This document shows, one piece after another, positions 31,907 to 44,884 of a stretch of 64,000 nt of DNA (position 1 is its first letter; each line of letters starts with the position of its first letter). The stretch is taken from positions 77,017 through 141,016 of the forward strand of contig NZ_JBQCIF010000015.1 in assembly GCF_051953955.1 (NCBI RefSeq), in the 5' to 3' direction. Source of the stretch: Trinickia sp. GTDB lineage: Bacteria > Pseudomonadota > Gammaproteobacteria > Burkholderiales > Burkholderiaceae. The position numbers were made by a program, and so were the translations under genes. Below the pieces are notes generated by a model. That model made no database searches. It had not been told where the DNA came from and saw only the letters and a program-made list of their open reading frames with translations.

Positions 31907-32581
31907 TCAATCGGACCCGTACCTCGGCGACCTCGGACCATACAACAACCCGTTCGGCGGGCCGGCCGACAATAAACGGCGGCTGGTCAGCCCCGCGACG
32001 TCATGGGCTTCGTCCGTCAGCGAATGGGCAATCTGCTTGACCGCGGACTGCACGAGCATGCCGACAATTCCGAAACCACCCACGTTCACATTGGTGCCGA
32101 GTTCCTTGCCGGTCGCGTGGCCCGTGCCTTGCCATAGCACGTCGCCCGCCTTCAGGTCCACGAGCTTCGCCGATGCCGTCACGATCGTCGTGCTGTCGAT
32201 CACCTGATAGACGGAGCCGTACTGCGAGACCTTCGCGTACAGCGCGGCATCCGCGCCGAAGATCTCGCGCAGCTTCGCGGGCGGCACGCCCTGAATCTCG
32301 GCCGCGTTGGTCAGGCCGTTTTGCTTGAACGTCTCATCCATAACCGCGACTGGAACCACGTAATAGCCCGATTCGGCGAGTGGTAGCGTCATCTGTGACA
32401 ACATGCCGTAAGTGGCCGCGACGTCGGATGTTTCGTTGATAGGCGGCAACACGAGAATCGAGCGCGGCTGGCTCTTCTTGAAGGCCGTGTAGTCGGGGCG
32501 CGTGACGGTCGGCGCACAAGCGCTCAGCAGAGCAGCAATCGACAGCACTGACAGCAGCTTCAATGAAATGGTCTTGAACAT
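31907..32581 (-). CDS. DUF799 (GNA1162-like) lipoprotein
   Basis: Lipobox 'ALLSAC'. 'SILVLPPINETSDVAATYGMLSQMTLPLAESGYYVVPVAVMDETFKQNG' matches my memory of the DUF799 family. Third gene of a lipoprotein operon. Confidence 0.75.
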   Translation of the reverse strand: MFKTISLKLLSVLSIAALLSACAPTVTRPDYTAFKKSQPRSILVLPPINETSDVAATYGMLSQMTLPLAESGYYVVPVAVMDETFKQNGLTNAAEIQGVPPAKLREIFGADAALYAKVSQYGSVYQVIDSTTIVTASAKLVDLKAGDVLWQGTGHATGKELGTNVNVGGFGIVGMLVQSAVKQIAHSLTDEAHDVAGLTSRRLLSAGPPNGLLYGPRSPRYGSD

Positions 32582-32591
32582 GGCTGGCGTC

Positions 32592-32951
32592 TCACTCCTG
32601 AGTGGCTTGTTTCTTCTTCATCAGGAAGTCCATAAAGGCCGTCGACTCCGCAAACAGCTGTCTTTCAGCCTGCAGTTCCTGTTCGGCACGATGCTCATCC
32701 CCAACGCTCACGTAGAGCATGCCGAGATGCGCATGGAAACCCGGAGGCGTCTGATTGCCTTTCCCGCGGATTTCTTGCAGTGCCTTTTCAAGCGCGTCAA
32801 TCTGCTCCTGCGGTGACGTCTTTCCTTTGAAGTATTCGTATACCTGCGGCTGATAGGCGTTCCACTGATAGAGCGGCGGCGTAGTCGTCGTTGCACAGCC
32901 CGAAAACAGTAACGCAGCCGTCGTCGCCGGCAGCCAAATACCCTCTTTCAT
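32592..32951 (-). CDS. DUF4810-like small lipoprotein
   Basis: Lipobox 'LLFSGC'. 119 aa and helical/TPR-like ('…HAHLGMLYVSVGDEHRAEQELQAERQLF'). It sits between the CsgG-like and DUF799 genes, as is usual for this family. Confidence 0.65.
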   Translation of the reverse strand: MKEGIWLPATTAALLFSGCATTTTPPLYQWNAYQPQVYEYFKGKTSPQEQIDALEKALQEIRGKGNQTPPGFHAHLGMLYVSVGDEHRAEQELQAERQLFAESTAFMDFLMKKKQATQE

Positions 32952-32996
32952 CTTCTTTTACTCTCAGGTTATGTAGTAGAACGAATCGTATGGTGT

Positions 32997-33674
32997 CTAT
33001 TGCGCTGTTTTCAGCGCGCCCGCGTCGACCTGCTCGGCGAGATGGTTGACCGCTTGCTGAATCGCGAGGTCGAGCACTTTGCCGTTGAGCGTGGAGTCGT
33101 AGCTCGCGGTACCGCCGAAGCCGATGATTTCGCGATTGGAGAGGCTAAACTCGCCTGCTCCCTGGCTCGACGCGATCACTTCGGATGTGATTGTGTCGAC
33201 GATGTTCAAATTGACCTTCGCATACGCGACTTGTGTCTTACCGCGGCCGAGGATGCCGAACAGCTCATGATCACCGACGTCTCTGCGGCCGAACTCGGTC
33301 ACGTCGCCAGTGACGACATAATTCGCGCCTTTGACCGCCGGCGCCTTGTTCATGAAACCCGCTTCCTGCCTGATCTCCTCGAGATTCTCGCGATCGAGCA
33401 CGTTGAAGCGCCGGCTCTGCTGCAGGCGCGTAACGAGAATTGTCTTCGCCTGGCCACCGAGACGATCGATGCCATCGGAGAAGATGCCGCGCATGTAGCT
33501 CGAACGGTTATCGAACTTGCCGACAGCGATCGGGAGGGGCTTGCCCGCGTAGGGCTTCTGTGCGCTGCCGACGACAGGCACGTCGAGCGTGCGAGACGAT
33601 TCGGTTGCGCACGCGCTCAACCCGAGAGCGAGAACGGCTGCGGTTATAACTGGGTACTTTCCACGTCTACTCAT
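32997..33674 (-). CDS. CsgG/HfaB-family outer-membrane lipoprotein
   Basis: Lipobox 'ALGLSAC'. 'PIAVGKFDNRS…GGQAKTILVTRLQQSRRFNVLDRENLEEIRQE…' resembles the CsgG secretion-channel family. 'gaggaa' lies upstream of the ATG. Confidence 0.75.
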   Translation of the reverse strand: MSRRGKYPVITAAVLALGLSACATESSRTLDVPVVGSAQKPYAGKPLPIAVGKFDNRSSYMRGIFSDGIDRLGGQAKTILVTRLQQSRRFNVLDRENLEEIRQEAGFMNKAPAVKGANYVVTGDVTEFGRRDVGDHELFGILGRGKTQVAYAKVNLNIVDTITSEVIASSQGAGEFSLSNREIIGFGGTASYDSTLNGKVLDLAIQQAVNHLAEQVDAGALKTAQ

Positions 33675-33990: not shown

Positions 33991-34215
33991 TCAAGAACGC
34001 CGCCCCATGCCCAGGCACGCAGCGAAGACAAATGCGCACATCACCCCTCCCAGAAGTAAGCCGTAGACAAGGATGCCCTTAGCATCCTGTCGGCTCCATT
34101 CATACGCAACGCCGTAAAATAGTTGTACGAGATACACAACAGAAATCTTTATCGACGCCACTCCCAGCAATGAAATAACTAGGGCATACACCGTGAGAAG
34201 TAGAGGCCGCGTCAC
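33991..34215 (-). CDS. cdiI: Candidate CdiI immunity protein (74 aa, two predicted TM helices)
   Basis: The GTG start overlaps the cdiA stop (GTGA). Two hydrophobic stretches are present: 'LLLTVYALVISLLGVASIKISVVYLV' and 'GILVYGLLLGGVMCAFVFAACLG'. GC is 45-47% in the two 60-nt lines I counted. Confidence 0.6.
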   Translation of the reverse strand: MTRPLLLTVYALVISLLGVASIKISVVYLVQLFYGVAYEWSRQDAKGILVYGLLLGGVMCAFVFAACLGMGRRS

Positions 34216-37200
34216 TTTTTCCCACCCTCACCGTTTCTGACATTATTGATTCCTGCGGCTCCGAATTCCGATCCAATGCTGCCACCAACCGAAGAACCGA
34301 TTGCTGGCACGTTGTTAGGCGTAAATAGCCTCAATCCAGATGATCCCGACCATTTTCCAACATCGGCCCAACCGAAACCGTTGATCGTCGGTTTCGTGAG
34401 TGATCCGACTCCAGCTTCGACCCCCTTGCCCACACCGTAACCGAACATTGAGCCCGCACCGCTTACAGCCCCACCGAGTACGACACTGTCGCTCTTTCCC
34501 TGCAAGAAGTTGTTGAGCGCCGTTGTTGTCGCGCCTCCGAGGATGTTGAGTCCCACGTTGCTAACGAGGCTGCGATAGATGGAGCCGGCGTAGCCAGTCC
34601 CGAACGCGCCGACTACGTCCACTGGATTGATTGTCCCATTCTGCATGTACTGCGCTCCCGCGTTGATCGTAGCTGTAATTACTCCACTACCGACCGACGA
34701 GGCCAGTGCGCTCGAACCGAGCGCACCGTTCGTGCTCAGGATCGGCGTTCCAGGCAATGCGGCAATCGGTCCGCCTACCGCTATCGTCGCCGCGCCAACT
34801 GCCGCCCCGATTGTGCCCTTCGTGTAGGCATCGCGATACGCCTGCTCGCGATTCACCGAATTCGCGATGTCTTGCGACCCCGGCACGTTCATGCCGGCGC
34901 CGTTCGCGTAATGCCCCGCGTACATACTCGGATTCGCCTTCTGATCAGGCGTCGCATAAAACATATAGCCGGGCCCGCTATTGCCATCAGCCGGGAGCAT
35001 TCCGCGTTCTTGACGCAAGAATGCCGCAGCGCGCTCATTCCATGGCCCGGGTGAGCCGTTCTGAACCATCAGATTCGCTTGTGTTAGAAGCTCCTGTTCC
35101 GCTTGTGCGAGCGTCAATCCATTTCGCTTGGCATACGCTTCCTTGCGTCGATCGATCGACGCCCTTTCCACCGGAGCCAACTGCCGGTTAAACCGATCCG
35201 CAGCAGCAGCCGTCAGCGCCCCCGTCGAGCCACCGACCAACGCGCCCGCGCCACCGGCCAACACGTTCGCGGTGACGTTACCAATGAGTTGATCGACGTT
35301 CGCGTTACCCGTCGGCCCCGCCTCCTTGATCGATCTCGCGAGCGCATCGAACTTCGGCGCGAGCTTAGCCGACATCCCCGCGCCCGCCGCTCCACCTACT
35401 GCGCCCAGTCCGCCGCCGGTCAATCCCCCCGTGAGCGCACCGCCCGCGATATGCAGCTTCCTCCGGTTCGTACCGCCCTCTGCCCAGCTTGCCGCCTCTT
35501 GCTGATATTGCACCTTCAGCTTCGGATCGGTTTCAGCCTTCGCCGCCGTGAGCGCTTCATCCCGCTTTTTCTCGGCATACTTCCCAACCTGCTTAGCAAC
35601 CGCTTCCGCCGCCGCCTGCGCCGCGTCGATCAAATCTGCTTGGTTGCTCAAGGTGGCCTGCAAATCCGGCAGTTGATCGACGATCCCGTTCAGGTTCGTC
35701 GCATCGCGGTTGAGCATCGCAATGTCTTGCTTTTGGTTGGCCTCATCGGTGATCGTGATGCCGCCCGCGCTTATCGCACTCCTCGTGAGCGCCTCACTGC
35801 TTCCGCGCTCGCTCACCGCCAGCGGCAGCGCGCCACCTGAGTTCTTGCCCGAGCTCGGCCCATGCGTCGCGTAGTTGCTGCCACCATCGCCGAAACCACC
35901 GCCCGCGCTGATCCCAACGCTGCGCGCGCTGTAACTTGAACTGTTTTGCACGTCCGAGAACGAGAGCGTGCCCGTCCTCAATCTGTTTTTATCTGGGTCC
36001 GCCGTGCTCGCGATATACGTCCCCTTCAAATCGGTGTTGCCCTTGACCGTAATGTCGAAACCGCCGTCGCCCACGGCAATGCCCGACTGCTCGCCTACAC
36101 CGGCGTAGTTTCCGCTTGCGCGACCACTGCGAGCGCTGAAGCTGGCGCTGCCTCCGCCCTGGCTCACGCTGAAGCCGCCGCCCACGCTGCTCTGGCGCGA
36201 GGCGCTGCGCACCGTGTCCTGCTCCGATGCGATATTCAAATCGCCGCCGATGTCCCCCATCACCCGCTTCGCGCTCACATTGGCGCCCACGATGTTCGTG
36301 TCGCCCCCGCTCTTGATCGTCACCGTGTTGCCCGCCTGAACATGCGTGTTGTTGTGCGTCACCGCATCGCTGTTCGCATCGCCCTTTGCCCGCGACATCG
36401 CAGCCGATACGCCCCAACCACTCGATCCAAACGACACACCGGCGCTCGCACTCGTCGACTCGTTCGTGCTGCGCGTCTTATCCGTATCGGTGCTGCTCAG
36501 CAAATTGACTCGATCGGTCGCTTGCAACAGCACGTCACCCGCCGTCACCGCCGAGCCCTCGATCGTCACGTTGCCTTGCCCCGCCGCCTTCTCGCCCGTC
36601 GCGATGAATGCAGCGCGTCCACCGGCCCTCACCGTGCTGCCGCTCTGCCGCGTACTGTCCTCGGTGAACGTCGTCTTGCTGCGCGACGCACCGAAGCTCA
36701 GTTCGATCTTCGCTTCAGGCTTGCCATTGCCGTTCAAGGGACCGCCCATCGCCCCCGCGGCGCCCGCCAGATCGGCCACGCCGCCGGCTGCCGCCATCGC
36801 ATGCAGCGCCGCCGCGCGCCCATCCCCACTGGCTGCCGCCCCCCGTGCCTGCCGATTGACGTTCTGGATCGCATCGATCACGGGCGACTTCACCGCCAAG
36901 GTGAAGCCCGAGCTTTTCATCTCGTGCGTTTCCTCATGATGGCGCGCCGTGCCCGACGCCTGCACCTTGACCTCCTTGGCGATGCCCGTCACGTCTTGCG
37001 CCGCTAGAATGTCCGAACCCGTCACATGCAGGGTATTGCCGGCTTGCAGCACGACGCTGCCGCCCGTGCTGCCGATCAAGCTGCCCCGTGCGCCCTTCAT
37101 AGTGTCGCGGCTCGAATCGCTCGTTTGATGCGTGCCGTAAGAGATCCCCGCGCCGGCGCTGCCCAAGCCCGACTTCTTGACCTCCTTGTAGTGGTATTCG

Positions 37201-40200
37201 CTCGATGCCGTTTGCGCCGTCGTCACCCTCAAGTCATGACCGGCTTGAAGCGTCACGTCGCCCGTTCCCGCGATCGTCGCGGCCTCTGCCGTCAGGTCGT
37301 TGCCGGCCGCAACGCTGACCGTGTCGCCCGAGAACGTCGTGCCGATCGCATCGGTGTAACTGCTCGCGTCGACCGTATGTGTCGATTTCGACGAGAGCAA
37401 CCCGCGCTCGCTGCTCGCCTGCTCGTCATACGCGCTCGCGCTTTGCTCACCGGCCCGCAGGTTCACGTCGCGCCCCGCGACCGCACCGAGCGCCTGTTGC
37501 GCACTGACGCTTGCCGCCGTCGCGTTCAAATCCCGCCCGGCGACGATCCCGATGCGCCCGCCCGATGTGATGGCCGTGCCCGTATCGATCGATGCGCTGC
37601 GCACCGTTCGGTTCTTCTCGTCCCACTGCACCTGGTCTTCGCGGCTCTGGCGAATGGCGCCCAAGCTCACGTCTCGCGCAGCCGATAGCGATACATCGCC
37701 GCTCGTATCGATCCGGGCGGCATCCGCATTCAGATCGCGCCCGGCTTGCACCGCGAGCGTTCCGGCGTTGATTGCCGCCACGCGATCGATGACGGTGGCC
37801 GATCCGTTCGCCGTCACTGCCGAGCTCGTCGTGCTCGATAGGTTCACATCGCGCCCCGCGCTCAGGCTCACTGCATCGCCTTGAATCAGCCCGCCCAGAT
37901 TGTGAAGATCCTGTTTCGCCTTGGCGCGTACCCTGGAGCCCGCCATCGTCCCCACGTTCGTGATCGAATCGGCCGTGATGATCGTCACGCGTCGGCTCGC
38001 GATCGTGCCTGTGTTCGCCAATGCGCCCTTGTTGCGCAGCTCGACGCTTTCTCCCGCAACGATCGATCCCGTGCCGGTCACGTCCGCCGCATGCGCGCGC
38101 ATATATACCTGCGGCACGAGCACTGCCTGTTGCGTGCCGTCGGACAACGTCACCTCCTTGTTCACCAGCCAGACGATGTCGTCCGTGAGCGCCGCCATCT
38201 GCGCATCGGTGAGCGCCGTGCCGACGTTCATCTGGAAGCGTTCAGCCGCCTTCACGCCATTGGCCATCAACGCCTGGTATTGCGTCTGGTTGTCGGTGTA
38301 GTCGCCGATGAAGCGCTGCCCAGTCGCCTCGACGATCTGCCGCTGGACTAATTGCTGCTCATAAAAGCCGTCGCCCAAGCGCTTTTGCACCGAGCCGGGG
38401 TTTCTACCGAGCGCCGCCATCATCGTCTCGCTCGAGAGCCATTGCCGTCGGTTCGTGAAGCGCGGGTCCGTCTCGATCAGATAACGGCTGCCCGGGTCCG
38501 TCACCACTTGATAGAGCGCATTGCTCGGCAGCTTCACGTTCGGCTGCACCGTGCGGATTTCGATCGGGCCGAGCTTCGCTCGCGCCTGTGCGGTCGCGGC
38601 GGCACCCGGCACCCCGATGCCCGATACGCCCTGCGCAGCCAACGCCTCGGCCAAGACGCGATTAACCGGCGCCTGGTTTGCCGGTGCGACCGAAGCAATA
38701 GGCAAATCGATTTCCCGTGCGGGCATGGGCGCGACATAGGGTTTGGCGTCGAACTTGCGCTCATCGCCACGGAATCTGCGTCCCGATACCCAGGTCGTGA
38801 TCGCGCGGCCCGATGCCGTGAATGTCTCGACGCCCTTGGGCTGACTGTTATCCTGGATGGCGTCGTTCAGGTAGGCTTGGCCGCCCGCCAAGATCTGACT
38901 TTTGTCATTGACGCCCGAACTCGCCTTGATGTCGACGGTTCGCCCCGCCGTGATCCTGCCTGGCTGGCTCGCGATGACGACATCCTTGGTGGACGTTACA
39001 TTGACGTCGTAGGTCGTCCAGCGCGGAGCGATCCGGCTCATCACGTCATTGTTGTAGTCGGACACCGCTCGATTGAGCGCGTCATACGACTGCGTGAGCT
39101 TGCCGTACCACTGGTTGAACGGCCGGCAAAGCTCAGCCGCTGACGTCAAGCACGACTGGCGTTGCGGCATGGCGTTGCCTGTTTGCCGCTCACTGGGCTC
39201 GCTCACGGACGGCACGTTCAGCAAGTACCAGTCGCTGCCTAGCTTGCGCGTGCCCACCCAAGGCGCGCTCACCGTCATCTCGCCTCGCTTGATATAAGAA
39301 GGCTCCGGCGGCGGGGGCGGCGGGGCGACGCCAAACTTCGCCCACATGTCCTCGGGCACCGTCCGGTATGCGCCCGCTTCGCCCGCCCGGTCAGCATCGA
39401 CCTTGACGCCGAAGGGATTGTTCGATGAGCGCGGCGTTGCGCGGTAATGCACCTTCTCGATTTGTCCCGCGTTGCCGTTCATCGTGTACTTCGCGTAGTC
39501 GGCAAACGGATAGGTGCTCGACGGTAGCAGCAATCCCTTCTGATCGTCGTCCAGCGCCCACTCGTAATCGGCGCCGGACTTGGCCTCATGCCCACTGCGG
39601 TGATAGAACCGAACATCGGACGGCTCGAGGCGCTCGGTTGCGCCCGGAACGGTGTGCCAAATCTGCCGCCCCGAATCGGTGGTCACCTTTTGCGTTTGGA
39701 AGTTCGCGTTCACGTTCTCAAAGCGCTCGGCCGCGATCTTGACGTCGCCGCCGGTATCGATCGACGCGCCTTCGTTCCTGAAACGATCCGACAAGACCTT
39801 CGAGGCCCGGCCATCCGCATCGAGGCTGCGCCCCGCCCGAAGGTCGTTCGATGCATAGATCAGGCTCTCGCTGCGATTCTCGATCACCGTTGCACCGATA
39901 TCGACGTCGCCACGCGATGCGATCACCCCGCCCACGCCTTGCGCATTCGCTTGGTTGCGCATGAGCTGGCCACCGATCGAGACCGAATCGCCGTAAATGC
40001 GCCCGTGGTTCGCAACCGTCTCGGCCGCTTCCACACGCGTGGCACCGCCGTCGATCAGGCCTTCGTTAGAGAGCGACTGCCGGGCGAGAACTCGCGTTCC
40101 GTGCGTGCCCGCGATATCCCCGCCTGCCTGGTTATCGATCCGCTCACCGGAGACGCTTGCGACGTTGCCGGCCGTCATCGCGCCGCCGTTATCCACATTG

Positions 40201-42107
40201 CCTTGCGCGCGGGCCTCGAGATCGTGTCCGGCGTGCATCGCGCCGCGCGTGTTGTCGATCGCGGCGCCTGCGATCGTCACGTCTGCGTCGCCGGCGATCT
40301 GGCCGGCGATATTCGATATGTCGCCGGCACCTTCGAGCGTCAGCGCCTCGTGCGACAGGATTGCGCCTCGATCGTTCGTGACCGATTGCGCCGACACGGC
40401 TGTCGTATGCGAGGACGATATGACGCCGCCGGCGTTCTCGAGCGCACCCGCCGCCAGCGTCACCCCTTTGCCGATCACCCGGCCACCGGCCTGGCTGCCC
40501 TCGGCTGCTCGGTTATCGAATAGGCCACCTTGCATATCAAGCTTTGCTGCATCACCCGATTGAATCACGCCCGAGCGGTTCGAAACCGATCGCGCGTTGA
40601 TGCTGGCTTTGGCCACGGCATCCAGCGCGCCAGCGTCGTTGACGAACACGCCATGGGATCGCAGCGTCGCGTTCAACGCGGCTGCCGTGATTGCGCGCAT
40701 CGAAATCGACTGTTCGCCCGCCACATTCAACGCGCTGGCCGCGAACACCTGGCTGCCGTCGAGCGACACGCTCGTGCCGCTCACGTTGACGTTGTCGCCC
40801 GCTGCAAGCGAGCCGCTGCTGGCAATGCGTTCCCCTGTGAGCGTGACGCTACCCGGCCCCGAAGGCAGATCGCGACCGTTCACACCCGCCATGACGACGC
40901 CGCGGCTCGTCAGATCGCGCGCGCTCAGATCGGCGTTGGAGCGGGCCGCCACCACACCGTCATTGCGCAGCGTGTCCACCGCGCTCAGGCGGGCCGTTTG
41001 AAGACTCGTGATCGTCCCCTCGTTCTTGATGGTCGGCGCGTCGATGCGTATGGAGCCGGCCGCCTGGATGCGCCCTGCCGGCTCGATGGTGACGTCCCCG
41101 TTCGCCGACACTTCGATCGTGCCCGTCAGCGAATCGAGCTCACCCGAATGCCGCACGCCGACACCCGCTTCCGTACCGATCAGAAACACGCTATTGGCGT
41201 ACATGCTGCCCAGCGCATGCACATCGATCGCAACCGTGGGCCTCTCGCCTTCGCCAGCCTGCCTCATGACGATGCCGTCGGCATAGCCGACTTGGTTCGC
41301 GCCGGCCACCGCGTGAACGGAATCGGCCCATATTTGCGCGTTGATCCGCTCGGCCCGTGCGATCAAATCCAACACGCTGCCGCGTGCGTCGAGCCCCCCG
41401 CCACCCACGCTGAGCCTGCCGCGCGTCACGTCGAACCCGGCCAGCGACCCATCCGCATTCAAGCGCGTGCGGCCGGTTGCCAGCGAAACGCGCGGGACGT
41501 TGATGAAGCCACAGCCTGCGCAGGCGATGCCGGCTGGGTTCGCGATCACGAGGTTGGCACGGTTGCCGGCGATTTCGGTCATGCCGAGCAATCGCGTTGG
41601 ATTGCCCGACGTCACTTGATTGATGATCACGCGTGCGGGCGAATTGCCCATCAACGGGTTGCCCTGCACCCAGCCAGCGATTTGCGTTTGCGCACTTCTG
41701 GGGGTGTTGACGATGACGGCCCCCTTGGTGCCGACGTTGTAGTGCGTGAAGTTGTTCAGCGACACACCGGCTCTGTTCGGCGCCACGATGTTCACCAACG
41801 GCACGCCCGACGACGAGACCCCGACCACCGGGTGGTGCGAGCTGCTGCGATCAGGCGTCATTGACAGCGTGGCTTGCGCCGCCACACTAGAGGGCTGCAT
41901 GCCGAGCGCGCAAAGCGCGGCGAAGGCGCTTGCGCGTGCGGCACGCCACGGCGATATTCCGGATCGATGCGATGCAGGTGCGCCAGCGCTTCTCGCGCTT
42001 CGCGCGAGCGAGCGCGTGCCGCGCCGGCGTGACGATGCACACTCGCTCGCAGGCACCCACAGGCCGCGCGAAGCGCTGAACACCAATCGGTAGAGTCCGG
42101 AATTCAC
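34212..42107 (-). CDS. cdiA: CdiA/TpsA filamentous-haemagglutinin-type exoprotein with a polymorphic C-terminal toxin domain
   Basis: 2631 aa with a GTG start 9 nt after 'gaggaa'.
- Extended signal peptide region: 'MNSGLYRLVFSASRGLWVPASE'.
- TPS domain: 'LVNIVAPNRAGVSLNNFTHYNVG…VIINQVTSGNPTRLLG…NLVIANPAGIACAGCGFIN'.
- Long degenerate FHA repeats.
- Conserved block: 'LPSNALYQV…DPRFTNRRQWLSS…KRLGDGFYEQ'.
- Gly-rich variable C-terminus. Confidence 0.9.
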   Translation of the reverse strand: MNSGLYRLVFSASRGLWVPASECASSRRRGTRSLARSARSAGAPASHRSGISPWRAARASAFAALCALGMQPSSVAAQATLSMTPDRSSSHHPVVGVSSSGVPLVNIVAPNRAGVSLNNFTHYNVGTKGAVIVNTPRSAQTQIAGWVQGNPLMGNSPARVIINQVTSGNPTRLLGMTEIAGNRANLVIANPAGIACAGCGFINVPRVSLATGRTRLNADGSLAGFDVTRGRLSVGGGGLDARGSVLDLIARAERINAQIWADSVHAVAGANQVGYADGIVMRQAGEGERPTVAIDVHALGSMYANSVFLIGTEAGVGVRHSGELDSLTGTIEVSANGDVTIEPAGRIQAAGSIRIDAPTIKNEGTITSLQTARLSAVDTLRNDGVVAARSNADLSARDLTSRGVVMAGVNGRDLPSGPGSVTLTGERIASSGSLAAGDNVNVSGTSVSLDGSQVFAASALNVAGEQSISMRAITAAALNATLRSHGVFVNDAGALDAVAKASINARSVSNRSGVIQSGDAAKLDMQGGLFDNRAAEGSQAGGRVIGKGVTLAAGALENAGGVISSSHTTAVSAQSVTNDRGAILSHEALTLEGAGDISNIAGQIAGDADVTIAGAAIDNTRGAMHAGHDLEARAQGNVDNGGAMTAGNVASVSGERIDNQAGGDIAGTHGTRVLARQSLSNEGLIDGGATRVEAAETVANHGRIYGDSVSIGGQLMRNQANAQGVGGVIASRGDVDIGATVIENRSESLIYASNDLRAGRSLDADGRASKVLSDRFRNEGASIDTGGDVKIAAERFENVNANFQTQKVTTDSGRQIWHTVPGATERLEPSDVRFYHRSGHEAKSGADYEWALDDDQKGLLLPSSTYPFADYAKYTMNGNAGQIEKVHYRATPRSSNNPFGVKVDADRAGEAGAYRTVPEDMWAKFGVAPPPPPPEPSYIKRGEMTVSAPWVGTRKLGSDWYLLNVPSVSEPSERQTGNAMPQRQSCLTSAAELCRPFNQWYGKLTQSYDALNRAVSDYNNDVMSRIAPRWTTYDVNVTSTKDVVIASQPGRITAGRTVDIKASSGVNDKSQILAGGQAYLNDAIQDNSQPKGVETFTASGRAITTWVSGRRFRGDERKFDAKPYVAPMPAREIDLPIASVAPANQAPVNRVLAEALAAQGVSGIGVPGAAATAQARAKLGPIEIRTVQPNVKLPSNALYQVVTDPGSRYLIETDPRFTNRRQWLSSETMMAALGRNPGSVQKRLGDGFYEQQLVQRQIVEATGQRFIGDYTDNQTQYQALMANGVKAAERFQMNVGTALTDAQMAALTDDIVWLVNKEVTLSDGTQQAVLVPQVYMRAHAADVTGTGSIVAGESVELRNKGALANTGTIASRRVTIITADSITNVGTMAGSRVRAKAKQDLHNLGGLIQGDAVSLSAGRDVNLSSTTSSAVTANGSATVIDRVAAINAGTLAVQAGRDLNADAARIDTSGDVSLSAARDVSLGAIRQSREDQVQWDEKNRTVRSASIDTGTAITSGGRIGIVAGRDLNATAASVSAQQALGAVAGRDVNLRAGEQSASAYDEQASSERGLLSSKSTHTVDASSYTDAIGTTFSGDTVSVAAGNDLTAEAATIAGTGDVTLQAGHDLRVTTAQTASSEYHYKEVKKSGLGSAGAGISYGTHQTSDSSRDTMKGARGSLIGSTGGSVVLQAGNTLHVTGSDILAAQDVTGIAKEVKVQASGTARHHEETHEMKSSGFTLAVKSPVIDAIQNVNRQARGAAASGDGRAAALHAMAAAGGVADLAGAAGAMGGPLNGNGKPEAKIELSFGASRSKTTFTEDSTRQSGSTVRAGGRAAFIATGEKAAGQGNVTIEGSAVTAGDVLLQATDRVNLLSSTDTDKTRSTNESTSASAGVSFGSSGWGVSAAMSRAKGDANSDAVTHNNTHVQAGNTVTIKSGGDTNIVGANVSAKRVMGDIGGDLNIASEQDTVRSASRQSSVGGGFSVSQGGGSASFSARSGRASGNYAGVGEQSGIAVGDGGFDITVKGNTDLKGTYIASTADPDKNRLRTGTLSFSDVQNSSSYSARSVGISAGGGFGDGGSNYATHGPSSGKNSGGALPLAVSERGSSEALTRSAISAGGITITDEANQKQDIAMLNRDATNLNGIVDQLPDLQATLSNQADLIDAAQAAAEAVAKQVGKYAEKKRDEALTAAKAETDPKLKVQYQQEAASWAEGGTNRRKLHIAGGALTGGLTGGGLGAVGGAAGAGMSAKLAPKFDALARSIKEAGPTGNANVDQLIGNVTANVLAGGAGALVGGSTGALTAAAADRFNRQLAPVERASIDRRKEAYAKRNGLTLAQAEQELLTQANLMVQNGSPGPWNERAAAFLRQERGMLPADGNSGPGYMFYATPDQKANPSMYAGHYANGAGMNVPGSQDIANSVNREQAYRDAYTKGTIGAAVGAATIAVGGPIAALPGTPILSTNGALGSSALASSVGSGVITATINAGAQYMQNGTINPVDVVGAFGTGYAGSIYRSLVSNVGLNILGGATTTALNNFLQGKSDSVVLGGAVSGAGSMFGYGVGKGVEAGVGSLTKPTINGFGWADVGKWSGSSGLRLFTPNNVPAIGSSVGGSIGSEFGAAGINNVRNGEGGKK
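35108..35201. repeat. Copy A of the direct repeat (encodes the ADRFN…RNGLTL junction of cdiA)
   Basis: See copy B. This region encodes the boundary between the conserved CdiA body and the variable C-terminal domain. Confidence 0.85.
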
Positions 42108-42113
42108 TGCCGT

Positions 42114-43058
42114 TTATTCCTCGAGGTCAGCCAATACCGGCGAAGCGACGCTGGCGGCCGCTTCTTGCTCGACCTGCTGCAACGCGGGTCGGGCGCAACT
42201 GAACACGGCAATACCGTTGATCAATCCAACGGTCGGCGCGTGCACGCCATACGACACGACGAGATAGGGCTTGGATGCATCCGGCCCGAAGAAGGTCGTG
42301 GCCAAGGAAGATCGGGTTGCCCCCGTCAAAACCATCGCTCCCAGGGAGACATCGTCGGTGAACGTTTGATCGTGATCGCTGCCAATGGAATAGCGCAGCT
42401 TCAAGGATGCAACGTTGCGGGATTGGCCAAACGGATCGGTGCCTTCCGTCAGATCGGCCGAAGCGCTAGCCAGGGCGCCGGGGGCCGTGTTGCCGTCACT
42501 CGCGGTCGGGCGCGTTGCGGCTGCCAATTCACAGCGCATCCCCTCGCCGACCGTCACAGGCTCGGAGAGCGGTGCGCCGAGCGCCCAAACCCGACCTTGA
42601 TTGACGTTGTATGAATACCCTGCCGAATCGCTGCCCGCCGTCCAGCGCCCAATGGCGAAGTGCCCATTGCCCCCGATATCGGTAACGATCCCCCGGGAAA
42701 GGCTGAGCGCCCCTCCATCGAACGGCAATGTCGTATAGGCGCCCGGTGAGATCGCTTGCAACACGGACGGGTTCTCTTCGGTTCCGATCCGGGCCTTGCC
42801 TTGGGGCATCGAACCATCGGCACTCCAAGTCACCGGTGGGTGCAGCACCTTCACGGTAGTCAATTCGCTCGACAGGGGCGTTGCCTTCCCTTCCGCCGCG
42901 ATGTGCGCAGTTGCCGCGCTCTCCTGCGCCTTAGCGGGTGCCGGGTTAGCCTCACCGCCGCCCCCGCCTCCGCACGCCGCGAGCCCGAACGCCGATAACA
43001 CGGCAGCGGTCGCCGCCGCCAGCTTGAAGAACATGCGCTGCTTGTTCCTATCTTCCAT
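42114..43058 (-). CDS. Lipoprotein of unknown function encoded between cdiB and cdiA
   Basis: Signal peptide plus lipobox 'AVLSAFGLAAC', followed by a poly-Gly linker (CGGGGGGE). The remainder looks beta-rich. The stop is 6 nt before the cdiA start, and the last codons (GAGGAATAA) supply the cdiA SD. The start is ATG 43058 or 43034. Confidence 0.7.
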   Translation of the reverse strand: MEDRNKQRMFFKLAAATAAVLSAFGLAACGGGGGGEANPAPAKAQESAATAHIAAEGKATPLSSELTTVKVLHPPVTWSADGSMPQGKARIGTEENPSVLQAISPGAYTTLPFDGGALSLSRGIVTDIGGNGHFAIGRWTAGSDSAGYSYNVNQGRVWALGAPLSEPVTVGEGMRCELAAATRPTASDGNTAPGALASASADLTEGTDPFGQSRNVASLKLRYSIGSDHDQTFTDDVSLGAMVLTGATRSSLATTFFGPDASKPYLVVSYGVHAPTVGLINGIAVFSCARPALQQVEQEAAASVASPVLADLEE

Positions 43059-43144: not shown

Positions 43145-44884
43145 CTAAAACAGCGAACTGATTTGAAATAAGAACGTGGGTGAACCGCTTACCCCTACCG
43201 GCTTGGATAAGGGCCAGCCCACCGAGACGTCGTAGTGGATCGATGCTGCCAAGACGCTTTTCGACGTGACTTGCCCCCGCATTCCGAGCACGGCGCCCAC
43301 CAACGTCTGCCCCGTGAGAAACTCGGCCGCCGGGCCGCGAACCCGGCCGGCATCGATGCCGCCATAGATGGCCTGAGTGCCGATTTCCGTCGGCACGTAC
43401 CAATCCAATTCGTTTGAAATGACCCAGCCGCTCTCGGCGGCCAGCGTCGTTTGTTGGTCGAAGCCGCGGACCGAATAACGTGTGCCAATCGCGAAATAGT
43501 TGGCTGGCGTGAGCGGCGTTCGTGCGTTTTGCGTATTCCAATCGAATCGGTACGAGAACGGCTGATCGCCTACCCTGAAGGGCACCTGCATTCCGGCGCT
43601 CGCCAACGCGACTTCTGTCTTGCCGTCGAAGTCGGGTTCGCCCAATACCATGCCGATGTTTCTGGACCATCCAGGCACCGACGCGCGCCACGCCAGCCCA
43701 CCGGTGAACATGACGTCGCCGACGTATTGACGATGAGACACGCCCAACTCGTAACCGAGGACGTCGCGCGTCTGGGCCGGCAACTCGACGCCGTCGTAGG
43801 TATTGCCGTTGATTTCGCGATACAGATCGCCGCGCACTTCGGTTTGCGCCTGGGCATTGCGAAAGACGACGGCAGACAAGCCGGCCTGGAGCCTCGATTG
43901 CACGCCGCTGTAGAGCACGGGGCCTTCGAATCCCGGAACAGACTGCTTGTACCTCGACCGACTCGCGCTGGCCGCAAGCAACGCGTAGCCGATCGGCACG
44001 TTGTAGTTGGCGAGGACGGACTGGTTCCCCTCGCCGGGAGCGCCAAAGTTCGCGTTGGTCGTGCCGGCGAGCTGCAGTTGGTCGTATAGATGGAGCGGCG
44101 AATCGTAGGTGAGCGATCCGAATAGCGATGTCTTGCCCGTGGCATTCAAGCCTGCGTTGTCGACTCCGACGATCGCGTGCCAGCGCTTGCCGGTTCCCGG
44201 ACGCAACACGAGTTCGGACTCTCCCGGATTCGCGCCCGGAGCGACATCGAACATCGCATCGGCTTGGGACTGCAGGCGGCGCACATTCTCCAGCCCTTGA
44301 TCGATGTCTCGCTGATTCAACAACGCGCGGGCGGAGGTGGGCAACGCCATGCGCAACGAGCCGATCGCCGGTTCGCCAGTTCGAACGCGACTGACGAGCC
44401 CCGGCAACAAACGCAGCGTCAGCCTTCCGGATTGCAGCGACTGCGCGGGCGCGAGCAAACGCGACGTGACGTACCCGCGCTCGATCAGTGCCCTATTGGC
44501 GGCATCCTGAATCCGAGCGAGCGCGGCCTTGCCGACGCATTGGCCCGCTATCGGCTGTAGGAAGCGCGCAAGCCACTGGAACTCGCTCTCTTCGAGCACG
44601 ACTTCCCTGATCGGGAAACAGGGTGTCTCGACCGGCAGGCTCGCCACGCTTTTCAGCAGTGCCGGTTCGCCAGCCGGCGATAGGACCCTCGGCTGAGGGT
44701 TCAGTGCTTTCGCCGCTTCGATCTGCTGCTGTTGGAGACGCTGGATTTGAGCGCCCGGCGGTCCTTCCGCGGGCGAAGCGACGTGCGCACTCGCCACCGC
44801 GCTCGCGCACGCGCAAGCGATCAGTGCGAATGCTTGCCGCCAAGTAAGCGCGCCCTTACGGCGAAATACGCAGATGGAGTGCAA
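43145..44884 (-). CDS. cdiB: TpsB/CdiB outer-membrane transporter (ShlB/FhaC/HecB family)
   Basis: 579 aa with a signal peptide ('FALIACACASAVASAHV'). POTRA-like 'CVGKAALARIQDAANRALIERGYVTSRLLAPAQSLQSGRLTLRLLPG'. The C-terminal beta-barrel ends '…TFLFQISSLF'. Confidence 0.9.
   Translation of the reverse strand: MHSICVFRRKGALTWRQAFALIACACASAVASAHVASPAEGPPGAQIQRLQQQQIEAAKALNPQPRVLSPAGEPALLKSVASLPVETPCFPIREVVLEESEFQWLARFLQPIAGQCVGKAALARIQDAANRALIERGYVTSRLLAPAQSLQSGRLTLRLLPGLVSRVRTGEPAIGSLRMALPTSARALLNQRDIDQGLENVRRLQSQADAMFDVAPGANPGESELVLRPGTGKRWHAIVGVDNAGLNATGKTSLFGSLTYDSPLHLYDQLQLAGTTNANFGAPGEGNQSVLANYNVPIGYALLAASASRSRYKQSVPGFEGPVLYSGVQSRLQAGLSAVVFRNAQAQTEVRGDLYREINGNTYDGVELPAQTRDVLGYELGVSHRQYVGDVMFTGGLAWRASVPGWSRNIGMVLGEPDFDGKTEVALASAGMQVPFRVGDQPFSYRFDWNTQNARTPLTPANYFAIGTRYSVRGFDQQTTLAAESGWVISNELDWYVPTEIGTQAIYGGIDAGRVRGPAAEFLTGQTLVGAVLGMRGQVTSKSVLAASIHYDVSVGWPLSKPVGVSGSPTFLFQISSLF

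Follow-up and report, generated by a model that had tools for sequence, protein, structure and literature searches.

A candidate alpha-helical CDI ionophore and its two-helix immunity protein at the C-terminus of a Trinickia CdiA

The DNA analysed here (the window) is a 64,000-nucleotide (nt) stretch of a Trinickia sp. contig, NZ_JBQCIF010000015.1, positions 77,017 to 141,016. It contains a cdiB-cdiA-cdiI contact-dependent growth inhibition (CDI) system of a Burkholderiaceae bacterium. CdiA (2631 amino acids, aa; 34212..42107 on the minus strand, stop codon included) displays Pfam matches to ESPR, TPS and Fil_haemagg_2 and ends in a variable C-terminal toxin region (CT). With a probability that we put at about 0.85, this CT is a two-domain toxin of the alpha-helical CDI ionophore family, described as type 10 and founded on E. 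coli EC93 CdiA-CT (Halvorsen et al. 2024; PMC11630599). The position of the CT was checked: it occupies the extreme C-terminus of a two-partner secretion (TPS) exoprotein, past a conserved pre-toxin junction. It consists of two domains, a modular entry domain of ~150 residues and then the ionophore domain, which is restricted to the last ~170 residues. The protein is an uncharacterised member of the family with a distinct junction motif and entry domain, and not a new type of system, the family having been published in 2024; that description mentions Burkholderiales relatives in passing, and none of them was tested (PMC11630599).

Homology and predicted fold of the C-terminal toxin

The ionophore domain (CT 155-324; 34215..34724, minus strand) was assigned from profile alignment to the EC93 family, from relatives found with a hidden Markov model (HMM) and from AlphaFold2 (AF2) models with five predicted helices. 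The EC93 CdiA-CT and CdiI used as reference were taken from plasmid pCP127, and 67 relatives were collected. A profile of 32 members of the window family was compared by hhalign with a profile of 62 EC93-family sequences. The alignment had a probability of 92.8%, an E-value of 4e-7 and a score of 49.1 over 129 columns; in it, CT 163-322 faces positions 26-157 of the EC93 ionophore domain, which is 160 residues long. With the template reversed, the score was 15.9, and in 40 column shuffles the median was 11.6 and the highest value 18.2. Since no control exceeded 18.2, against 49.1 for the true alignment, composition alone is not the cause of the match to EC93.

Intermediate sequences were also found between the two families. 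An HMM of the C-terminal domain, run against 1.84 billion representatives, matched 258 proteins at E<=1e-3, of which 107 also passed E<=1e-10. Thirty of the 146 matches examined were also recognized by the EC93-family HMM, on the same residues. Ten long matches were scanned for other domains: eight carried hemagglutinin-type domains (Fil_haemagg_2 and/or DUF637), some of them together with TPS, DUF6862 or PT-VENN, and the remaining two displayed nothing beyond LysM, or no family at all. A listed member of the published family, WP_073535323 (the CdiA on plasmid A of E. coli M8, which PMC11630599 labels 'group 4' in its S1 Appendix), matched the window-family HMM with an E-value of 2.2e-11. In hhalign it reached a probability of 86.5%, with the Trp-rich loop between helices 4 and 5 included in the alignment, and its gene is followed by an 80-aa two-helix open reading frame (ORF). 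Over aligned columns, identity between the ionophore domain of the window and the E. coli members is 16-22%. EC93 CdiA-CT, chosen as comparator in an earlier reading of this DNA made from its letters alone (the sequence-only reading), was thus the right one, and the profile match and the 30 bridging proteins point to homology and not to mere resemblance.

VENN-type CTs from three Erwinia/Pantoea loci matched by tblastn at 34-35% identity, and only to the C-terminal ~155 residues of the window CT. When plasmids were searched by tblastn with the C-terminal domain itself, all matches were Burkholderia cdiA genes, with none from E. coli; the link to E. coli plasmids was obtained via the Erwinia-type CT. 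Plasmid pCP127 of EC93 carries, after cdiA2, an orphan module (L001:21103-21756) that shares 53% identity with the Erwinia-type ionophore CT and whose only annotation is as two hypothetical proteins.

A word-indexed search returned 53 relatives of the CT, all from Burkholderiales and mostly annotated as 'hypothetical proteins' of ~320-400 aa or as fragments of 'filamentous hemagglutinin'. By genome scan, 49 CT-related loci were collected. In about 15 of these the CT ends an ORF that is still open where the fetched locus begins on its upstream side, as a full-length CdiA would be; others are orphans. In this way the alpha-helical CDI ionophore family gains a Burkholderiaceae branch with many members (Burkholderia, Paraburkholderia, Trinickia, Pandoraea, Caballeronia and Mycetohabitans), with related loci beyond it in Herbaspirillum and Collimonas. 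In this branch the junction is not of the VENN type and the entry domain is uncharacterised. Many 'hypothetical' proteins of ~330 aa and unannotated ORFs of 71-92 aa in these genomes turn out to be orphan ionophore/immunity modules.

Pfam and NCBIfam searches with the last 562 residues of CdiA and with CdiI gave sub-threshold noise only (DUF7216, MCE, Tetraspanin, teneurin FN-plug). Structure prediction was performed on the full CT and on its C-terminal part. For CT 155-324, modelled with 50 diverse sequences, AF2 gave a predicted local distance difference test score (pLDDT) of 73.1 and a predicted template-modelling score of 0.52, with five helices of 16-30 residues (CT 164-183, 188-203, 207-229, 235-264 and 293-320). 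The same helices recur in the model of the full CT. As modelled, the five-helix architecture agrees with the one reported for the family (PMC11630599). Foldseek searches of the PDB with both models found nothing at E<=0.001, the weak matches being helical membrane channels and transporters, and a profile search of PDB sequences gave chance matches to lumazine synthase only. The check for an enzymatic toxin fold that had been proposed along with the sequence-only reading therefore found none. Similarly, the statement that the CT lacks a nuclease- or deaminase-type motif was borne out, no enzyme family or fold being matched in Pfam, NCBIfam, Foldseek or PDB sequences; the whole CT contains one His and no Cys.

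Helix 4 contains a glycine zipper, G245-SMF-G249-YGV-G253 (34428..34454, minus strand), which was identified from conservation and from the profile alignment. G249, Y250 and G253 are each at least 90% conserved in the family alignment A1. The published zipper of EC93, of the form GxxxGxxxG, is G168/G172/G176 (PMC11630599). In our own count on the hhalign alignment, G245/G249/G253 face EC93 G172/G176/G180; the two zippers are one helical turn apart and share two of three glycines.

The composition of the CT was also compared with that of the CdiA body. In the last 210 residues, Gly, Ala, Ser, Thr and Asn together make up 57% (49% in the body), and Asp, Glu, Lys and Arg 8.6% (18.4% in the body). 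GxxxG spacings occur 10 times, at 4.8% of positions versus 1.7% in the body. The description of this segment as Gly/Ala/Ser/Thr/Asn-rich, almost uncharged and full of GxxxG-type spacings was accurate: the enrichment is real, though the CdiA body is itself rich in Gly, Ala and Ser, and all three Gly-rich strings quoted as examples were found.

The entry (translocation) domain corresponds to CT 1-154 (34725..35186, minus strand). Three confident helices are predicted in it, and it also contains the GPGYMFYATP motif and, at CT ~120-145, a single hydrophobic helix. Within the CT family no other portion is as well conserved, and the start of this domain is modelled confidently, with AF2 pLDDT values of 80-97 over CT 1-40. 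The same domain is fused to a bacterial EndoU nuclease in a Ramlibacter locus (L048, 647-1900; Pfam E 1e-17), and in other loci it is joined to Ala/Gly-rich membrane-type domains. Because one domain is found joined to such varied C-terminal regions, we assign it as a CDI entry domain. Where it precedes a globular toxin, the downstream protein is soluble and 106-154 aa long (five loci where an ORF was found). No similarity was found between this domain and the entry domains of EC93 (AcrB) or M8 (YciB). Whether the entry domain (NRQLHP...GPGYMFYATP... plus the hydrophobic helix) represents a Burkholderiales-specific route, via a receptor unlike the seven known for E. coli ionophores (AcrB, SecY, YciB, PuuP/PlaP, DtpA/DtpB), which would serve both ionophore insertion and import of EndoU-type nucleases, is in our judgement an evenly balanced question. 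If so, the locus would provide a handle for finding the inner-membrane receptor. The entry domain was also seen fused to at least three further, unassigned globular C-terminal domains (L025, L039, L042-L045, L049), as a single import module serving several toxin types.

Junction motif and immunity gene

The junction motif ADRFNRQL (CdiA residues 2303-2310; 35178..35201, minus strand) was located by comparison with the CdiA of B. territorii (locus L003) and from the starts of orphan modules. The N-terminus and the pre-toxin region of CdiA are collinear with the B. territorii protein, which shares sequence up to ...GAAVDRFNRQLHPEEK and then continues with an unrelated CT. Behind the cdiI of B. 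territorii lies an orphan module that begins with RFNRQ and is 61% identical to the window CT; more generally, orphan CT modules start at (D)RFNRQLH. The CdiA sequence contains no VENN motif, and its last 562 residues have no Pfam match to PT-VENN (PF04829); membership of the PT-VENN pre-toxin class was rejected on these two grounds. From these alignments, (D)RFNRQLH is the counterpart of VENN in enterobacterial CdiA, because the B. territorii protein is collinear up to the junction and then diverges, and because the orphans begin there. The junction had been predicted as ADRFN|RQL with about 325 residues after it, and we count 324 residues past N|R.

The cdiI gene (33991..34215, minus strand) encodes 74 aa predicted to form a two-helix membrane hairpin. 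Its GTG start overlaps the TGA stop of cdiA by 4 nt (GTGA), and a Shine-Dalgarno-like run, GAGGGTGGG, is located upstream. No promoter or terminator was detected in a scan of the surroundings of cdiI. As had been noted, the ORF is essentially two hydrophobic helices: the hydrophobic stretches cover residues ~1-35 and 45-72, with 19-residue Kyte-Doolittle means rising to 2.2-2.3. They are linked by the polar loop AYEWSRQDAKG, and basic residues are present at both ends.

A word search with CdiI in 5.8 billion proteins returned one other cluster besides the window's own, and the immunity family was then assembled by synteny. Among 34 loci with the C-terminal domain, 29 have a hydrophobic ORF of 71-110 aa (mostly 71-92) at an offset between -10 and +12 nt relative to the stop of the toxin gene, and one further locus has the hydrophobic ORF fused to the CT. 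Nearly all of these downstream ORFs have two hydrophobic segments, and most overlap the toxin stop by 4 nt. They belong to several sequence types, and many are unannotated. CdiI is 32-50% identical to five ORFs of its own type (L007, L008, L012, L013 and L047; 71-74 aa, four of them 74 aa), while the toxins of these five loci are about 44-62% identical to the window CT. Across the 10 pairs of immunity proteins compared, identity was 18-50%, versus roughly 48-62% for their toxins. Immunity proteins diverge faster than toxins, as in the E. coli family (PMC11630599). Identical copies of cdiI were found on five contigs, all from JGI metagenomes; the three shown carry the same locus and gene order. 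The proposal of a membrane-active glycine-zipper toxin paired with an immunity protein of two transmembrane helices is thus supported by the EC93-type homology, by the five-helix model and by the hydrophobic ORF in 29 of 34 loci.

Reading of the system and alternatives

By homology with the characterised family (PMC11630599), the CT would be expected to depolarise cells, CdiI to protect against it, and entry to use a receptor; the following steps are modelled on that family. After cell contact, the CT would be delivered to the periplasm of the target cell and cleaved at RFN|RQL. The entry domain would then engage an inner-membrane protein of the target cell, its putative receptor, and help the five-helix domain to insert into the cytoplasmic membrane, where the inserted domain would dissipate the membrane potential. 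In sibling cells, the 74-aa CdiI would reside in the inner membrane with both ends cytoplasmic. It would bind helices of the ionophore, which in the published models are alpha1, alpha4 and alpha5, and block them specifically within the membrane.

Several points weigh against this assignment. CdiA has 2631 aa, compared with 3157 aa in the B. territorii relative. AF2 confidence in the fold is moderate, and the model of the full CT, although all-helical, has a poor pLDDT of 58. The CT helices are weakly hydrophobic, and because their 19-residue Kyte-Doolittle means are mostly below 1.3, membrane spanning is not obvious from hydropathy alone. No significant similarity to EC93-CT was obtained in pairwise BLASTP or when the window profile was run against the single EC93 sequence; the match emerged only with profiles on both sides. 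The proposed homology depends on profiles and intermediates in a domain with a Gly/Ala/Ser bias, a setting in which the shuffle controls argue against an artefact. Finally, the experimentally studied members of the family are all at most 50% identical to the window protein.

Three other explanations were considered. The C-terminal domain could be a beta-barrel ionophore of the Ntox25/Tse4 kind, which would depolarise membranes in the same way but differ in fold and family. Gly/Ser/Thr/Asn-rich, weakly hydrophobic sequence is typical of membrane beta-barrels too, and the Ntox25 CDI toxins, too, have immunity proteins in the membrane, with a hydrophobic ORF present after EC93 cdiA2. However, no Pfam match to Ntox25 (PF15530) or to any other family was obtained at E<=1, both AF2 models are wholly helical, and the profile homology leads to the alpha-helical EC93 CT1 family and not to CT2. 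Membership of Ntox25 was rejected on the missing match and the all-helical models, and we regard a beta-barrel as very improbable.

A second explanation, that the CT is an enzyme or another toxin acting in the cytoplasm, with the Gly-rich segment serving translocation only and the small ORF not being its immunity protein, is in our view very unlikely. The entry domain is indeed common to cytoplasm-acting toxins such as EndoU, and the ionophore activity of the CT is a predicted one. On the other hand, the CT lacks any catalytic family, motif or fold, small hydrophobic proteins and not soluble ones follow the C-terminal domain, and the homology is to toxins proven to depolarise cells (PMC11630599). 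The cassette might also be a decayed, non-functional remnant, similar to an orphan module, on a cdiA that has been shortened and has lost toxin delivery. This would account for a CdiA ~500 aa shorter than the B. territorii homologue, and some related loci (L011, L016, L017, L026 and L038) are degenerate or frameshifted. We nevertheless consider it very unlikely: cdiA, the CT and cdiI are all intact ORFs coupled through the GTGA overlap, every nearly invariant family residue is retained, and cdiI is conserved identically on the five metagenome contigs, with the same gene order in the three shown. The alpha-helical ionophore thus remains our preferred reading of the CT.

Compared with the EC93-like type 10 toxins of E. 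coli groups 1-6 (PMC11630599), the predicted toxin shares its location at the CdiA C-terminus, a bipartite CT in which an entry domain precedes a five-helix Gly-zipper domain of ~160-170 residues, and a two-helix hairpin immunity protein encoded directly downstream (72-100 aa in those systems, 74 aa here). Faster divergence of immunity proteins than of toxins and the presence of orphan modules are also common to both. At the profile level, the homology extends to group 1 (EC93) and group 4 (M8/magpie_fecal). The differences are the (D)RFNRQLH junction in place of VENN, without a PT-VENN match, an entry domain dissimilar to those of EC93 and M8, and a Burkholderiaceae host, to which the low identity with the E. 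coli ionophore domains can be added.

Ntox25 toxins (E. coli type 14, for example EC93 CdiA2-CT) and P. aeruginosa Tse4 resemble the proposed toxin as membrane-depolarising interbacterial toxins with hydrophobic immunity proteins; they are predicted beta-barrels (PMC11630599), whereas the models here are all-helical. The type VI secretion system (T6SS) effectors Ssp6 and Tse5-CT and the pore-forming colicins likewise kill by depolarisation and have membrane-embedded immunity proteins. They use other delivery systems and are unrelated in sequence, being set apart here by their description. They are cation-selective channels, active from the periplasmic side only except for Tse5-CT, and they insert without a receptor, whereas CDI ionophores need inner-membrane protein receptors (PMC11630599). 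The comparison with Tse4, Ssp6 and Tse5-CT made in the sequence-only reading holds as a functional analogy, and as an analogy only, with Tse4 modelled as a beta-barrel (PMC11630599).

Like the locus in the window, the bcpAIOB-type CDI systems of Burkholderia occur in Burkholderiaceae and carry a polymorphic CT/immunity cassette on their TPS exoprotein. They differ in gene order, which here is cdiB-(lipoprotein ORF)-cdiA-cdiI, and in the junction, RFNRQLH here and not NxxLYN. The bcp class, with the bcpAIOB order and the NxxLYN junction, was reportedly described by Anderson et al. 2012, a study cited in PMC11630599.

In practice, the locus can now be annotated directly and offers a candidate with which receptors could be sought in Burkholderia; as a concept, it goes little further than the 2024 description.

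Cassette exchange and neighbouring genes

The CT and cdiI together are best explained as a mobile cassette that would be exchanged via recombination at the conserved junction. Base composition was analysed along the locus, including the sliding-window check that had been suggested. In 200-nt windows, G+C falls to a minimum of 0.485 at 34100-34299, for a mean of 0.647 over the whole window, and a recount gave exactly the values reported earlier, 28/60 at 34081-34140 and 27/60 at 34141-34200. At third codon positions, the cdiA body has a G+C (GC3) of 0.786, compared with 0.62 for the CT and 0.55 for cdiI. None of the 324- or 74-codon windows of the cdiA body has a GC3 as low as that of the CT or of cdiI. 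GC3 falls from 0.77 to 0.55 directly across the junction (residue ~2310, nt ~35180). The drop in G+C is thus real; its onset had been placed in the last few hundred nt of cdiA, but the GC3 break lies at the junction, and not only in that last stretch. The neighbouring CsgG/DUF4810 genes likewise have below-average G+C (0.55-0.60). Consequently, the cassette is the sharpest low-GC feature locally, yet low G+C is not unique to it. The description of toxin and immunity gene as compositionally foreign is borne out by the low GC3 of both. Horizontal exchange of the CT/immunity cassette, as proposed in that reading, fits both the GC3 break at the junction and the orphan modules found behind other cdiA genes.

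Orphan CT/cdiI modules are present in B. territorii and B. multivorans. In B. territorii, an orphan array is located behind cdiA-cdiI (L003:9720-12900). Its first unit is an orphan ionophore CT with an unannotated 74-aa cdiI, the second an orphan CT of 267 aa with a 93-aa two-helix ORF, and the third the C-terminal fragment of another ionophore with a 65-aa membrane ORF. The CT of the B. territorii CdiA itself ends in a hydrophobic, Gly-rich segment, and its immunity protein is a 91-aa two-helix protein. In B. multivorans WS-FJ9 (L017) and in a B. territorii sequence (P0028), the toxin and immunity frames are merged into a single ORF. Such a fused ORF might be a frameshift or a natural fusion, and might either inactivate the module or neutralise it from within.

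Upstream of cdiA, cdiB (43145..44884, minus strand) encodes the two-partner secretion outer-membrane transporter (579 aa; Pfam ShlB, E 1.7e-68, with POTRA_2 and POTRA_3). Between cdiB and cdiA lies a 314-aa ORF (42114-43058, minus strand) with a lipoprotein signal, LAAC|GGGGGG. No Pfam family matched this ORF, and it is not present in the cdiB-cdiA gap of B. territorii L003. A 297-aa homologue, likewise a lipoprotein ORF, neighbours a degenerate CT module on a contig from an uncultured Burkholderia (L011:4819-5712). An accessory role in CDI is possible for the 314-aa ORF.

Directly downstream of cdiI, CsgG-like, DUF4810 and GNA1162-like genes form a three-gene lipoprotein operon (31907-33674, minus strand). 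The G+C content of this operon is 0.55-0.62, below average, and the order of its three genes after cdiI is repeated on a JGI metagenome contig.

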